The translations under genes were made by a program, and so were the position numbers. The notes beneath the pieces are model-generated. The model was not told the origin of the DNA, searched no databases, and saw nothing but the letters and a program-made list of their open reading frames with translations. 64,000 bases of DNA. Origin: Eledone cirrhosa. Lineage: Eukaryota. Of this stretch, positions 7,283 to 58,270 are shown one piece after another. The stretch covers positions 279,558,001-279,622,000 of the forward strand of contig OZ024743.1 in the NCBI GenBank assembly GCA_964016885.1. The letters run 5' to 3'. The stretch's first letter is position 1, and every line of letters starts with the position of its first letter.

Positions 7283-8061
7283 TATGAATAAAGTTAGTCC
7301 TTCATCAGTGATCTTCCAACCATCATTGGTATTTCATCGCTTTAAAGACCATATACCTCCGGTTGGTGCGAGCAACGGCTAAAAAAAGTCGTTGGGACAC
7401 GTAAATAAAGGGAACACGAGTGTAAACAAACAAAAATGGTGAAGCAACGAAAAGTGAGGAAGAAGGAGTCAAGTCCCAAATTTCTATGAATTTAAATTCG
7501 GTGAAATCGTGAACGAGAGAGAATAAAGACCATCAAACCTGGTTGGAATGTAAGCAAGGAAGGAATTCCGTACAGGTCTAACGGGAGGAAGAAGGGATCT
7601 AGTTGTGATTTCGGTGAACGTAAGTTCTGTGAAATCGTAGACGAGAGAGAGAAAAAAAGCGACCTGCCAGAACAAGGGTGCGAAAGAAAAGAATTACGCA
7701 CAGGTCAAACGGGAAGAAGGAGGAGGAGGAGAAGTAGTAACAGAGAATGAGTGAGTGAAGGGTGAGGAAGAGGCTAACAGAGAGAGTGACCGCTAGAGAG
7801 GGTAAAGATACAGAGAAAGAGGAAGCAGTAAGAACGAAATAGACGTGTAACAGCGGGGAAAAAATATATGTAAATATGACAAAAACGTGCTGCGGGGTTG
7901 CTAATGGGTTACATATGAATAAAGTTAGTCCTTCATCAGTGATCTTCCAACCATCATTGGTATTTCATCGCTTTAAAGACCATATACCTCCGGTTGGTGC
8001 GAGCAACGGCTAAAAAAAGTCGTTGGGACACGTAAATAAAGGGAACACGAATGTAAACAAA
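7283..8061 (-). mobile_element. Element with 148-bp terminal direct repeats (period 631 bp) between TA arrays, PLE pLTR-like
   Basis: 7283-7430 equals 7914-8061 with one mismatch. The repeat carries ctgatgaaggactaac on the minus strand, identical to the 5' half of the hammerhead at 11555. Confidence 0.7.
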
Positions 8062-8271
8062 TATATATATATATATATATATATATATATATATATATAT
8101 ATATATATATATATATATATATATAAGAAATAGGATTTCGCTTCAAGCATAGCTTTATACAATATGTATAGAAATTTTGTATTTCTAAAGAAACATGGTT
8201 TTAGGAAGCCGTAGCTATGCAAAACGGGGGCTTACGCCCTATGGTGGTGTCCAGCAGAAACAAGGGGTACA

Positions 8272-8315
8272 ACCGTCTATGCATTTCAGGCTTGACTGGC
8301 CTTCGTCAGGACGGT
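8272..8315 (-). ncRNA. Type I hammerhead ribozyme (minimal, palindromic stem III)
   Basis: Exact reverse complement of 8368-8411. Confidence 0.85.
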
Positions 8316-8367
8316 CCCTCCCACCGCTTGCTACTGCTGGACGTGAAAACAGTCGAGAGTGGAAGGG

Positions 8368-8411
8368 ACCGTCCTGACGAAGGCCAGTCAAGCCTGAAAT
8401 GCATAGACGGT
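8368..8411 (+). ncRNA. Type I hammerhead ribozyme (minimal, palindromic stem III)
   Basis: accgtc CTGACGA aggc cagtcaa gcct GAAA tgca TA gacggt. Stem I extends via aaggg/ccctt across a bulge. Confidence 0.88.
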
Positions 8412-8688
8412 TGTACCCCTTGCTTCTGCTGGACATCACCAGAGGTCGTAACCTCCGGTGTTTGCATAGCTACGGCTTCTTAAAACCGTATTTCTTTAGA
8501 AATACGAAATTTCTATACATATTGTATAAAGCTATGCTTGAGACGAAATACTATTTCTATTCTATTATAAGTTGAGACAACTGATGCAGCTTCATATGCA
8601 AATGAGATTAATAACCTCATTTACACAGACGAGAAAACTATATATTCTCGACTGTTTTCAAGTCCAGCAGTGGCAAGCGGTGGGATGG

Positions 8689-8732
8689 ACCGTCCTGACG
8701 AAGACCAGTTAAGCCTGAAAAGCATAGACAGT
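8689..8732 (+). ncRNA. Mutated copy of the 8368 hammerhead
   Basis: accgtc CTGACGA agac cagttaa gcct GAAA agca TA gacagt. Core is intact but the stems have mismatches. Confidence 0.7.
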
Positions 8733-8914
8733 TGTTCCCCTTGCATCTGCTGGACACCACCAGAGGGCGTAAGCCTCGGTGTTTACATAGCTACGGCTTC
8801 CTAAAACCGTATTTCTTAAGAAATACGAAATTTCTATACTTATATATATATATACCCACACACATGCAAATATATATATATATATATATATATATATATA
8901 TATATATGTATCAG

Positions 8915-54886: not shown

Positions 54887-54930
54887 ACTATCCTGATGAG
54901 ACAGAGAAGTTCGAAATGCGTTTAGATAGT
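54887..54930 (+). ncRNA. Type I hammerhead ribozyme, slightly decayed
   Basis: actatc CTGATGA gacagagaagttc GAAA tgcgt TTA gatagt, with a 6-bp stem I. Confidence 0.7.
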
Positions 54931-55779
54931 TGTCCCCCGCTGCTTGTGCTCTAATCGGCTAGACTGCGTTAGACGTCAAAGTTTAAATATTCATAGCTGG
55001 GCTATCGAAATATGTATTTATTAATCATAGGGTGTATCTTTTAATAGACTAAATTCACATGTATAAAGCTATGCCGTAGTTACACACACACACACACACA
55101 CACACACACACACACACACACACATACACACACACACACACACACACACACACACACACATATATATATATATATATATATATATATATATACAGAGTTT
55201 CTGAAAGTCACTAATGCAGTTTCAGTGATATCCAGCCATGCCACACTCATTCAATAAATCAATAATATTGCAGTTGGGAAAGTGCATCTTGTAGTTCAGA
55301 GTGCACTCATAATAGTTAAATAGCAAGTACAATGGCTGTGTTTTGGTAATGGTATGTTATGTAACTAGCTCATGGAGAGATTCCGTTTCTGTACAATATT
55401 CTGCCCATCAATGGCTATTAAAACTGCAATGTGTACAAAATTGGGTATTATCGGCAGATATTACGAAATCGGGCAGTTGCACGTCCTCAGCAGGTTAACT
55501 CTCCACTCAATATATAGATCATTTGTGTGTGCATACTAACGCGTATTGCTCTGGTAATAGATCAATCAGTTCTACGCTATCATGACTCGTGACCTCTAAA
55601 CAAAATAGAGGAAGACCGTTGTATGAGAAAAAATACCTTTTGTTGGGTAAATTCAATATATATATATGTGTGTGTGTGTGTGTGTACGTGTGTGTGTGTG
55701 CGTGTCATTGTGTGCGTGTGTAAGTTTATGTGTGCGTGTGTCTAAATATATATATATATATTATTATGATTCATACATG

Positions 55780-56290
55780 TAACATGTATTGCCCTACCTT
55801 AGGTTTTAAGACGAGTCGTCAACTGCAGTCTGCATATATTGGAGCAAAATGCATGAAGCAGTGATGCAACTCTTAGAAATAATTCATTAAGTGGAGAATG
55901 AAAATCTGGACAAGATCTCGGATTGAAATCTCATGTGGACAGGGGCCATAACCCGGACGAATTTTGATCCATTTTCTAAGGGATGAAACTCTTGTTTAAT
56001 AATGCAAATGAATGTGATGTTGGGTCTGTGTGTTCGGATTATTGCCGATAATTCCAATCAATTTATAGTACGGTGTATATTAGGAAAAAGATTGACATGC
56101 AGTATATAATGTTAATGTGTTGGAATTATTGTGGTTATAGCATATCTGTTTGTGATATCTCTATGTCCAGCCAGAAGCTTTTCCCTGATGAAAGTAAGTG
56201 TCTCTTGAGTTGTAAGTATACGTAAAGACCTCTTTATGTTCGGTTCAGGTATATTTTCAATGACTTAAAACATTCTAGAATCCTGGATTA
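55780..56290 (-). pseudogene. Possible decayed Penelope-like RT remnant
   Basis: Minus-strand scraps VNLFPNI and VDD at plausible spacing. No ORF. Confidence 0.25.
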
Positions 56291-56374
56291 TAATACCACT
56301 CAGATATATATATATATATATATATATATATATATATATATATATATATATATATATATATATATATATATATA

Positions 56375-57372
56375 CTAGCCGAATTACCCGCGCCTTGCTG
56401 CGTTTCACACATGTGAGAAAATGATGATTGATTTTAAATCAGTGATATAATTTATGGGGAAAAACTCTCCATTACAATATTCATCGATGTAAAATGTAAT
56501 GCATGAAACATTGGAAAACATTATTTTTTGTAATATATCAAATCAAAATTACACTATTATTTTGTTTTTTGTAAATAATTTTTTTTGTAAATAATGTTTT
56601 TCAAAATATCACTTCAAAACTTTGTGAATAGGCATCATATCTTGTCATTTAACTATGGTTTAAATTTCATATAAATCGAAGGGAACAACTTTTCACCGGG
56701 GGTTTTGGGCCTCCGGGGAACTTAATAGGGGATTTAGCTCCCATTAGGTTGTCTTAATATTATTGAAATTTACTGAAATTTCGTGAATATGCATCATATC
56801 TTACATTATTAAATTTTATTCTTACATCATATCGTACATTATTAATAAGCTTACATTATTAGAATTGGCAGTATCGGTAGAGGGTTGGACGCCATGCTTT
56901 CTAGCATAGTTACGTCCCTTTACAGTCTGAGTTCAAATCCCGCCGATGTTAACTTTGCCTTTCATCCTTACAGGGTCGATAAAATAAAGTACCAGTAATG
57001 TACTGGGTAATTGCTGGCCTTGTGCATAAAGTAGAAACAATTATTAAATAATCTTACATTATTAAATATTATTCTTATTTTGTTTCTTGTAAATAACATT
57101 TTTCAAAATATCAATTCAAAACTTTGTGAATAGGCATCATATCTTGTCATTTAACTATGGTTTAAATTTCATATAAATCGAAGGGAAAAAACCTTTCAGC
57201 GGGGGTTTTGGACCCCCGAGGAACCCTTTCATTAAAATGAAATATACTTATCCAAGTACCCTGGGCAATGTAGTTTAAGAATATATATGGTTATGGCGGT
57301 CTTTCTCCAAAACCATAGGAGGAGTTCATGAACAAACACACAAACAAACAAACAAACAGGAATACACCTTTA
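56375..57372 (-). mobile_element. Non-autonomous Helitron, copy 2, with an internal duplication and a nested SINE
   Basis: Minus-strand 3' end cgcagcaaggcgcgggtaattcggCTAG|T and 5' (tgtt)n. 56555-56720 is repeated at ~57075-57222. Confidence 0.75.
56864..57046 (+). mobile_element. SINE family A, full-length copy nested in the Helitron
   Basis: Head ttggcagtatcggtagag, B-box gttcaaatccc and tail aattatt. Confidence 0.9.
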
Positions 57373-57384
57373 TATATATATATA

Positions 57385-58270
57385 TATTTATTAAAATAAT
57401 AGATTAAAGTTTAAGCAAAGAATCGCTGCTTTCACCCTTAACGGGATCTAATGAAACTAACAAAGTCAATCTGTAAACGCAGAAGTGGATATTTCAAAAA
57501 ACGTTGCAACCGGAGGAAGACAGGAAGACGATACTTTGGTTCATGGAAACGTTCATAGAAACGTTCCCTGGCAAAGAACAGGAAAAAACGAATATAATAC
57601 GTCATTAATAGGATCGGTGAAAAACAATTACACGCAAAGACAGGACCCCGTTTATGGTATAAACGAAGTCATAGGCTAATGTTCTCTTAAGTGGTTCATA
57701 GAGACGTTCTCGGGCAATGAACGGAAAAACGAAGATAATACGTCATATGTGAAGCGCGGAGAACAATTGCACGCAAACACAAAACCACGTAAATGGTATA
57801 GCTGAAGTCGTAGACTAAAATTCTAACTAGGAAACCGAATGATTCTCCGCTTCAGAGTTAAGAATAAAGTAAATAAAATACAATACAGAGGTAATTGAAA
57901 TGAAATAAATACATACACGCGTCCAAATACGTACATACACAAGCATACGCGAAAACACTCGCCATAGGTATACAAAACCACGCAGAACATTAGTCTACGA
58001 CTTCTTTTATACCATAAACGTGCTCCTGTCTTTGCGTGTAATTGTTTTTCACCGCTTCTATTAATGACGTATTATATTCGTTTTTTCCCGTTCTTTGCCA
58101 AGGAACGTTTCCACGAACCAAAGTATCGTCTTCCTGTCTTCCTCCGGTTGCAACGTTTTTTGAAATATCCAGTTCTGCGTTTACAGATTGACTTTGTTAG
58201 TTTCAGAAGATCACGTTAAGGGTGAAAGCAGCGATTCTTTGCTTAAAATTTAATCTATTTTAATAAATAT
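57385..58270. mobile_element. Foldback element with ~290-bp inverted arms and an internal ~140-bp tandem repeat
   Basis: 57385-57685 inverts 57984-58270. 57538-57685 approximately equals 57693-57825. Confidence 0.88.
58199..58249 (+). ncRNA. Hammerhead-like fold with variant core CAGAAGA
   Basis: Three-copy consensus agttt CAGAAGA t ccc gttaa ggg t GAAA gca gcgattctt tgc TT aaact. Confidence 0.5.

Follow-up and report, generated by a model that had tools for sequence, protein, structure and literature searches.

Hammerhead ribozymes have been described in the ends of Penelope-like elements (PLEs) (PMC4209133, PMC8557442). Animal retrozymes have been tied to PLEs, and the accessible text of two reports already proposes both a PLE origin and mobilization by PLEs (PMC7229834; 10.64898/2026.07.22.740005). 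Published counts stand at about 6,000 hammerheads in a coral and about 5,000 in a mussel, with up to 120,000 retrozyme copies in the axolotl, as given in the available part of one of these reports (PMC7229834). For the PLE Poseidon PAc, the accessible text of another study describes two internal starts of reverse transcription in vitro, extension of both strands and hammerhead cleavage that is dispensable (PMC11167929). A hammerhead of rearranged block order, type SGC (HRIMA-1 and a variant), was reported by Eckert et al. in 2023, with cleavage validated for five examples (PMC10085705). As far as the available text of that report goes, the motifs were almost all metatranscriptomic, the RNAs were not in the genomes of known organisms save for one type-GCS candidate, and the SGC ribozymes require a helix joining stems I and II. 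Here we describe a 64,000-nucleotide (nt) stretch of the Eledone cirrhosa genome (contig OZ024743.1, positions 279,558,001 to 279,622,000; hereafter, the window) in which a non-coding repeat, family A, carries a motif that appears to be built like a type-SGC hammerhead.

What is new here is the rearranged hammerhead motif of family A; the remaining picture, of hammerheads in PLE ends and animal retrozymes linked to PLEs, is mostly known biology. Taken as a whole, an account in which PLEs colonized the window, non-coding passengers travel with them and family A bears an SGC hammerhead seems likely to us. A literature search for "type-SGC" returned Eckert et al. 2023 alone and no later report of a genomic SGC ribozyme, and one for cephalopod hammerhead ribozymes returned unrelated papers only, subscription papers being largely uncovered by both. 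The source assembly comprises 3.0 Gb in 1,796 contigs. We searched this genome with ten window units and read the best 30 loci per unit; the remaining families were read where they were present in the searched loci or in eight further stretches. The units of the window were sorted into 16 families. Eight of them (A, B, D, G, H, I, J, and L) consist of non-coding monomers arranged in tandem, six (E, M, Fh, N, and L1, of Hydra type, and R) are truncated 3' ends of coding PLEs, and C and K fall in neither group.

The rearranged, type-SGC-like motif of family A

Family A occupies positions 7283 to 8060 on the minus strand as 1.2 copies of a 631-nt non-coding monomer. Its two rearranged hammerheads, copy 1 at 7925 to 8002 and copy 2 at 7294 to 7371 (both minus strand), each hold the full set of blocks. 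Read along the minus strand, these are an outer stem, one strand of stem III with the AUA site, the stem I strand, a short linker and GAAA, followed by the stem III partner, a GA-rich bend, the outer stem partner, the stem I partner and CUGAUGA. In copy 1, the outer stem lies at 7997 to 7992, the stem III strand at 7988 to 7984, the stem I strand at 7982 to 7977, GAAA at 7966 to 7963, the outer stem partner at 7952 to 7947, the stem I partner at 7945 to 7940 and CUGAUGA at 7939 to 7933, and cleavage is predicted 3' of 7983. In copy 2, cleavage is predicted 3' of 7352, with GAAA at 7335 to 7332 and CUGAUGA at 7308 to 7302. The order of cleavage site, GAAA and CUGAUGA is that of type SGC, a non-circular permutation. 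Both motifs, at 7939 (-) and 7308 (-), were absent from the initial annotation, a list of hammerheads made from the letters of the window.

The SGC pairing of family A occurred in none of 20,000 shuffles, and relatives that are 63 to 86% alike retain the arrangement. Across eight aligned sequences, 91.4% of the cells are paired, and in 10 of the 22 pairs both sides have changed, compared to 0 of 500 shuffles. These two-sided changes fall in stem I (5 of 6 pairs, with 95.7% of the cells paired), in the outer stem (4 of 6) and in the 10.1-11.1 pair, which is found as AU, UA, UG and CG and is paired in seven of the eight sequences. All 13 core letters are invariant in the eight, with CUGAnGA, GAAA, and UH with A15.1-U16.1 kept throughout, and N7 and H17 vary as a hammerhead permits. 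When the bare pattern alone was searched, the pairing was present in 42 of 45 matches from this genome and in 0 of 120 from metagenomes. The exactly spaced SGC pattern was found 14,689 times genome-wide, compared to 5 times in controls; with the spacer one base shorter the count was 154, and with two bases fewer it was 16.

Compared with published type SGC (PMC10085705, in its accessible text), family A has the same block order of site, GAAA and CUGAnGA, a full and pseudoknotted core, a stem I strand joined directly to the stem II strand, and a covarying stem I. It differs in its presence as about 14,700 copies within a mobile repeat of an animal genome, in a stem II of one or two pairs with no stem I-II helix found, and in a stem III prolonged by a bent outer extension.

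We consider it reasonably probable that family A carries an active, pseudoknotted variant of type SGC, which would be the first non-circularly permuted hammerhead in the genome of an animal and the first of this permutation in that of any named organism. It would process a retrozyme that a TA-targeting PLE protein has copied some 15,000 times, and be of independent origin. The same reading has most of stem II replaced and stem III bent at a kink-turn-like motif. Several observations weigh against it. The structure was derived from the same eight aligned sequences, and these are related to one another. The five pairs of stem III, 97.5% paired, change on one side only. Stem II consists of a single covarying pair, two in some subfamilies, and a sizeable subfamily has an A.C or A.A mismatch there; a CGC/GCG helix with an upstream strand could extend it and shows no two-sided change. 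Inspection of the subfamily sequences by eye found no helix joining stems I and II that is common to all subfamilies. A minimum-energy fold, from a program that does not handle pseudoknots, formed the outer stem and stem III and left stem I unformed. Finally, the GA-rich bend of stem III appears to match the kink-turn pattern, and in the largest divergent subfamily a U stands at one of the kink-turn G positions.

The near absence of stem II would also suit a conserved, non-catalytic pseudoknot that stems from a hammerhead or looks like one and serves as a protein-binding or reverse-transcriptase (RT) loading signal. The 3' ends of family A, only about 67 and 108 nt on the 3' side of the predicted site, point the same way, as do the dispensability of hammerhead cleavage for PLE insertion in vitro (PMC11167929) and the 8 of 9 retrozyme dimers left uncleaved in one study (10.64898/2026.07.22.740005), both as stated in the accessible text. 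Such a signal is nonetheless unlikely in our view, given that the 13 core letters are fixed in eight sequences with hammerhead-like variation at N7 and H17 and that the 10.1-11.1 pair covaries. A further alternative is that no single-chain pseudoknot forms and that the blocks, coming from two tandem units or from separate RNAs, act in trans alone, as in dimeric PLE hammerheads. The units are indeed tandem, and dimeric action has been proposed for minimal PLE hammerheads (PMC4209133). Against this, 4 of 6 pairs covary in the outer stem, which packs the blocks locally, and the spacing of the blocks is fixed to the base, which makes an action purely in trans distinctly improbable.

Returning to the type-SGC reading, two other identities for family A were tried and set aside. 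Its description as a half hammerhead or a ribozyme-less unit was dropped once a search of the circular monomer had shown that stem I has a partner of 8 pairs lying 45 nt upstream from the core, together with the SGC pairing. A box C/D small nucleolar RNA (snR66, E 0.09) was rejected, as the box C-like word is lost in relatives that keep GAAA and AUH. No type I arrangement was found in the family A monomer by the descriptor or the circular-monomer search; judged from its sequence, the family would be retrozyme-like in its working and not a standard retrozyme member. Among the loci, 963 kb were searched for other non-circular orders, with no match to CSG and two isolated matches to GCS that form no family. 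Separately, a far more diverged SGC-like motif, with a two-pair stem II, was seen in another sequence context (L054:2555-2653); it may represent a second, older family.

Coding ends, non-coding monomers and their shared insertion scar

We examined the linkage of each family to coding PLEs. An open reading frame (ORF) of a coding element lies 157 to 177 nt upstream of family E in 9 of 54 copies, 858 to 963 nt upstream of family M in 10 of 77, and at a fixed distance from family R in 2 of 10. Fh, N, and L1 are linked to a Hydra-type ORF by one locus each (L301, L303, and L129). The Hydra linker CxCx5C, before a C-terminal nuclease with CxxC and CxH, was read in L092, L098, L106, L273, L298, L129, L301, and L303, with a frame break in the linker of L301. 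Microsatellites adjoin the 3' ends of all 54 E copies, 67 of 79 M copies and 46 of 59 Fh copies. By these motifs and the (TA)n target, E, M, Fh, N, and L1 are best interpreted as Hydra-clade PLE ends. For the coding partner of family D and for family R, a Neptune-type order, RT followed by a CX2-5CxxC linker and GIY-YIG, was read in L014, L304, L170, and L254; the GIY-YIG match (E 0.013) is below the Pfam cut-off, and the clade is called tentatively from motifs, not from a tree. Pfam named none of seven ORF pieces above its cut-off, three Hydra-type pieces included.

These ends share with published Hydra-clade PLEs (PMC8557442, in its accessible text) the CxCx5C linker, CxxC and CxH near the C terminus, a hammerhead at the 3' end, the (TA)n target and, in E, M, Fh, N, and L1, an inverted truncated copy with a tail at one end. 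They differ in that few families are described there, whereas here one family, M, reaches 21,909 copies with a non-canonical core, and in that the stretch between the two ends is about 60 to 100 nt, compared to 30 to 40 nt. Those 21,909 copies of the exact motif make M the commonest family counted in this way, ahead of A (2,243 copies of a 21-nt core), H (223) and B (214). Family M motifs (58195 to 58262, plus strand, and 34822 to 34885, minus strand) carry A at core position 4 in all 100 matches listed; a relative with a canonical core appeared in another listing, and the sequence suggests that the M ribozyme may be weakened. A Hydra-type subfamily (L129, L131, L293, and window positions 54345 to 54425, minus strand) has an insertion of one base in the core, or of three in L293, and two full Fh cores (L144 and L194) deviate from the hammerhead consensus.

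The non-coding monomers are of another kind. They measure 631 (A), 322 to 336 (B), 516 (D), 515 (G), 467 (H), about 460 to 540 (I), 317 (J) and about 350 nt (L). For A, B, D, G, H, I, and J, the units of 317 to 632 nt have a GC content of 0.32 to 0.43 and a longest ATG ORF of 24 to 78 codons, and L was read by eye. B, G, H, I, and J have a type I hammerhead in each unit, and D has a minimal form only. Circular-fold z-scores (12 shuffles each) ranged from -4.3 to -12.3 for B, G, H, I, and J and were -2.0 for A and -0.3 for D. In A, B, G, H, I, and J together, 173 of 275 distinct copies cross a monomer junction, returning upstream to their own 3' end; family A does so in 29 of 54 copies, with a period of 630 to 634 nt in 23 distinct repeats. 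A same-strand PLE ORF lies within 1.7 kb upstream in 12 of the 275, always with a TA tract of at least 12 nt between.

Could every unit nevertheless be the truncated end (pseudo-long terminal repeat) of a coding PLE, leaving no non-coding element that is independent? The initial annotation had named this outcome as the one that would remove the novelty of the units, and it had itself taken all of them for non-autonomous. The truncated-end explanation holds for E, M, Fh, N, L1, and R, which are 5'-truncated ends of coding elements; the 3' part of D is common to a coding element, and C and K were assigned to neither group. For A, B, G, H, I, and J it is contradicted, unless rare long masters exist, by the return to their own 3' end within one short period in 173 of 275 copies, by arrays of up to seven units and by longest ATG ORFs of 24 to 78 codons. 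As a general explanation we regard it as very unlikely, and the non-autonomous description stands for the eight families of non-coding tandem monomers.

Family H forms arrays of up to seven units among the 100 matches listed. In two of these (G000:C1:42757335-42759245 and C2:364755113-364757877) the periods are 472 and 457, and a period that is constant within an array and different between arrays fits one template RNA per array. In family D, the 3' 216 nt, including the hammerhead at 11555, match the end of a Neptune-type coding element (L014) with 94% identity. This shared 3' end would tie D to a Neptune-type PLE, the only such partner link among the monomers. The monomer junction of D recurs in many genome copies but was seen in 1 of 44 copies in the loci read. 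In an attempt to derive D by deletion from the 5' end of the L014 element, that copy proved to be itself 5' truncated. An array of nine units, with a period of 311 nt and a core like that of type I (G000:C1:1241766-1244283), belongs to a retrozyme family absent from the window.

In agreement with the accessible text of reports on animal retrozymes without long terminal repeats (PMC7229834; 10.64898/2026.07.22.740005), the monomers are non-coding units of low GC content, short and tandemly repeated, that carry a type I hammerhead (B, G, H, I, J, L, and D) and coexist with PLEs. They differ in that several are longer (467 to 632 nt), most insertions hold one or two units, family A is without the type I motif, and the evidence consists of an insertion scar (two ends, inverted arms and a TA target).

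This scar is common to both groups. Coding and non-coding families share TA-tract targets, two fixed 3' ends and inverted arms: copies stop at one of two 3' points, about 65 to 270 nt downstream of the predicted cleavage site and 40 to 100 nt apart, and host microsatellite follows. The 3' ends fell into the two bins in 30 of 30 cases for A, 28 of 28 for B, 35 of 38 for G, 26 of 27 for H, 55 of 56 for E, 75 of 79 for M, 70 of 70 for Fh and 38 of 38 for C. Inverted pairs joined one long and one short end in the coding families E (18/20), M (18/20) and Fh (23/24), and likewise in C (11/12), A (3/3), B (4/4), G (11/14) and H (8/12). Pairs with the same end twice made up 2 of 70 in coding families versus 9 of 86 in non-coding ones. 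Such a scar fits, by analogy, the two internal start sites of Poseidon PAc (PMC11167929). The accessible account of that element agrees with ours in two internal starts that explain the tail, AT-rich targets and extension of both strands; it was shown there for a coding element in vitro, whereas here it is deduced for non-coding passengers from genomic ends.

The long tandem arrays might also reflect a spread of the monomers as DNA, by satellite-type amplification or recombination in microsatellites, and not via RNA. We find this scarcely credible, since fixed 3' ends, variable 5' truncation and long and short inverted arms are as in coding PLE ends, and the two arms of one insertion share private changes (L307).

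The anatomy of the units, their copy numbers, the ORF linkage, the common end pattern and the covariation are observed; for movement through RNA, we infer who moves whom, a circular RNA and catalysis as follows. Coding Hydra- and Neptune-type PLEs would supply the RT and a GIY-YIG nuclease that cuts (TA)n. The PLE protein would copy its own RNA and also short non-coding tandem RNAs (retrozymes), each from two fixed internal sites. The template would be longer than one unit or circular, with copies crossing the ribozyme site and the monomer junction. Short 3' ends would result from early stops, and foldbacks from priming of a second arm at the other site. In family A, the ribozyme is predicted to cut 3' of 7983 and of 7352 (minus strand), freeing a 631-nt unit. 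Because copies run through the cleavage site, the sequence points to a circular or multimeric RNA from which the PLE protein would copy the monomers. The initial annotation had likewise credited PLEs with mobilization; the monomers do bear Penelope-type scars and coding PLEs are abundant in the genome, and the idea was already in print.

Some points count against this mobility scheme. A comparison of families found no partner PLE for A, B, G, H, I, J, or L, and the end bins fit poorly in I (16 of 39 pairs), J (1 of 14) and N (0 of 6). Reading was confined to the 30 best copies of each family, so that rare coding masters could escape notice. Junction fractions are inflated by queries that span a monomer junction, the ORF queries were drawn from the same loci as the copies tested, and the 3'-end bins were drawn after inspection of the data.

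Hammerhead density and the units of the window

The window has a GC content of 36% and dense (TA)n tracts. Using a strict type I descriptor, scored against 100 block-wise dinucleotide shuffles, we obtained eight matches, compared to shuffle means of 0.12 (maximum, 1) and 0.02 (maximum, 1); a broader descriptor gave nine, compared to 0.06 in shuffles. The hammerheads first noted by the initial annotation are therefore real, and their density in shuffled sequence is far lower, not similar. The strict cores lie at 8309 (-), 8374 (+), 37564 (-), 38175 (+), 39884 (+), 40740 (-), 42539 (-) and 54214 (+). Read by eye, 8695 (+), 8921 (+), 20835 (-), 52873 (-), 53400 (+) and 54893 (+) are hammerheads with at least one damaged position each, the forms at 11555 (+) and 17613 (+) are minimal or closed by U.U, the core at about 58203 (+) is the variant CAGAAGA, and 37071 and 42086 are 3' halves, as had been proposed. 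The earlier list of sites held up in that its named sites have strict, damaged, minimal, variant or half cores; besides the two family A motifs, it missed 39884 (+), degenerate cores at 12499 (-) and about 54410 (-), and a family M copy at about 34870 (-).

Rfam gave no match in the window at the gathering score. By E value it gave HH9 alone (E 0.7) for 40652 to 40758. Scanning by E value was swamped by microsatellite-like microRNA models and missed the family B hammerhead, and Rfam is therefore insensitive here.

At other loci, the broader descriptor found 90 matches in 520,200 flank bases, or 11 per 64 kb compared to 9 in the window, these flanks being biased to insertion-rich DNA. The hammerhead density of the window is thus ordinary for this genome. 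About 30 hammerhead clusters were seen in the flanks of the searched loci. In the group related to 39884, 17 variants retain their core, and 7 of the 8 pairs in stem II have changed on both sides, with 41 two-sided cells versus 0 of 500 shuffles. With the core kept and stem II covarying, these folds are under selection as RNA. Genome-wide, a loose pattern matched 247,017 times on the forward strand (control, 149,682) and 629,029 times on the reverse strand (control, 79,369), and about 60 of the first 100 matches listed were hammerhead-like by eye. Since the reverse count is lopsided, only an order of magnitude is claimed, and the genome total appears to be, roughly, on the order of 10^5 hammerheads.

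Next to family A, family B (8126 to 8840) is a retrozyme-like unit of about 322 to 336 nt with an inverted arm and forward copies, bearing the cores at 8309 (-), 8374 (+) and 8695 (+, damaged). Family C is a 3' end with the hammerhead at 8921 (8908 to 9045, plus strand) and recurs at 20540 to 21235 (minus strand) with the damaged core at 20835 and an inverted arm at 20556 to 20590; upstream of C lies a long non-coding stretch, and in the loci read no ORF was reached and no junction was seen. Family D (11080 to 11690, plus strand) contains the 516-nt non-coding monomer with the minimal hammerhead at 11555. The PLE relic that had been placed at 12775 to 13102 is present, and we correct its GIY-YIG segment to 12939 to 13100 on the minus strand. 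It belongs to family R (12262 to 13100, minus strand), a truncated coding PLE with its 3' untranslated region and the degenerate hammerhead at 12499. Family E (17535 to 17745, plus strand) is an inverted, truncated Hydra-type 3' end with the hammerhead at 17613.

Farther along, the Fh half motifs, at 37070 to 37258 (plus strand) and, as a foldback, at 42008 to 42195 (minus strand), are Hydra-type 3' ends truncated and inverted inside the stem II loop. Family G (37489 to 38513), a 515-nt retrozyme-like unit, has two divergent arms around a TA tract, with cores at 37564 (-) and 38175 (+). Family N (39658 to 39980, plus strand) is an inverted 3' end with the hammerhead at 39884 and the Hydra-type ORF link at one locus. 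Family H (40446 to 41046, minus strand) is a young (98 to 99%) retrozyme-like unit of 467 nt in 1.3 copies with a canonical type I core at 40740, and family I (42352 to 42590, minus strand) is part of a retrozyme-like monomer of about 460 to 540 nt with its core at 42539. Family J (52781 to 53603), retrozyme-like and of 317 nt, has an inverted arm and forward copies, its cores at 52873 to 52965 (-) and 53400 (+) both being damaged. Family K (54001 to 54319, plus strand) is a foldback 3' end with the core at 54214, in which inversion recurs at an internal palindrome. We rejected an inherited palindrome as its origin, as the junctions differ around the recurrent internal palindrome and two copies extend upstream. 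Family L1 (54337 to 54675, minus strand) is an old Hydra-type 3' end with a degenerate hammerhead, and family L (54682 to 55075, plus strand) is an old (about 76%), retrozyme-like unit of about 350 nt with the degenerate core at 54893. Family M (57388 to 58266) is an inverted, truncated Hydra-type 3' end with the variant core CAGAAGA at about 58203. These families had been described as unrelated in sequence, which did not hold: B and L are 71% alike over 278 nt, and E and L1 are 72% alike over 85 nt.

Further foldback units in which no hammerhead core was found, most of them bounded by TA, lie at 9065 to 9310, 13133 to 13344, 21580 to 21914, 33583 to 33970, 41070 to 41240, 50650 to 50860 and 51608 to 52750, and are probably the ends of other Penelope-like families. 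A TA-adjacent repeat common to 11775 to 12245 and 56375 to 57370 does not match the hammerhead families. The window also contains a broken retrotransposon of the type without long terminal repeats (44600 to 49350, minus strand), with RT-like and upstream ORF fragments. ORF fragments of an RT resembling that of long interspersed nuclear elements occur at 5320 to 6820 and 17845 to 18700 (both plus strand), with short simple repeats after the second. An abundant short interspersed repeat, which also inserts into the elements described, is found at 36211 to 36463, 19020 to 19150, 53700 to 53815 and 56860 to 57040.

Implications of a genomic SGC motif

As to which machinery moves animal retrozymes, the two-end scar common to both groups offers direct evidence from the genome. 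Since descriptors for types I to III cannot see the SGC order, counts of animal retrozymes may miss a class. In the accessible text of the 2023 report, the non-circular permutation of this RNA fold was reported from environmental sequences of unknown host, with the question of its origin unsettled. The thousands of genomic copies in E. cirrhosa, spread over subfamilies 63 to 86% alike, provide a natural mutational series and a biological setting, and the family A hammerhead fits within an 80-nt construct. If our reading of family A is true, the permutation would have arisen independently inside a eukaryotic mobile element.

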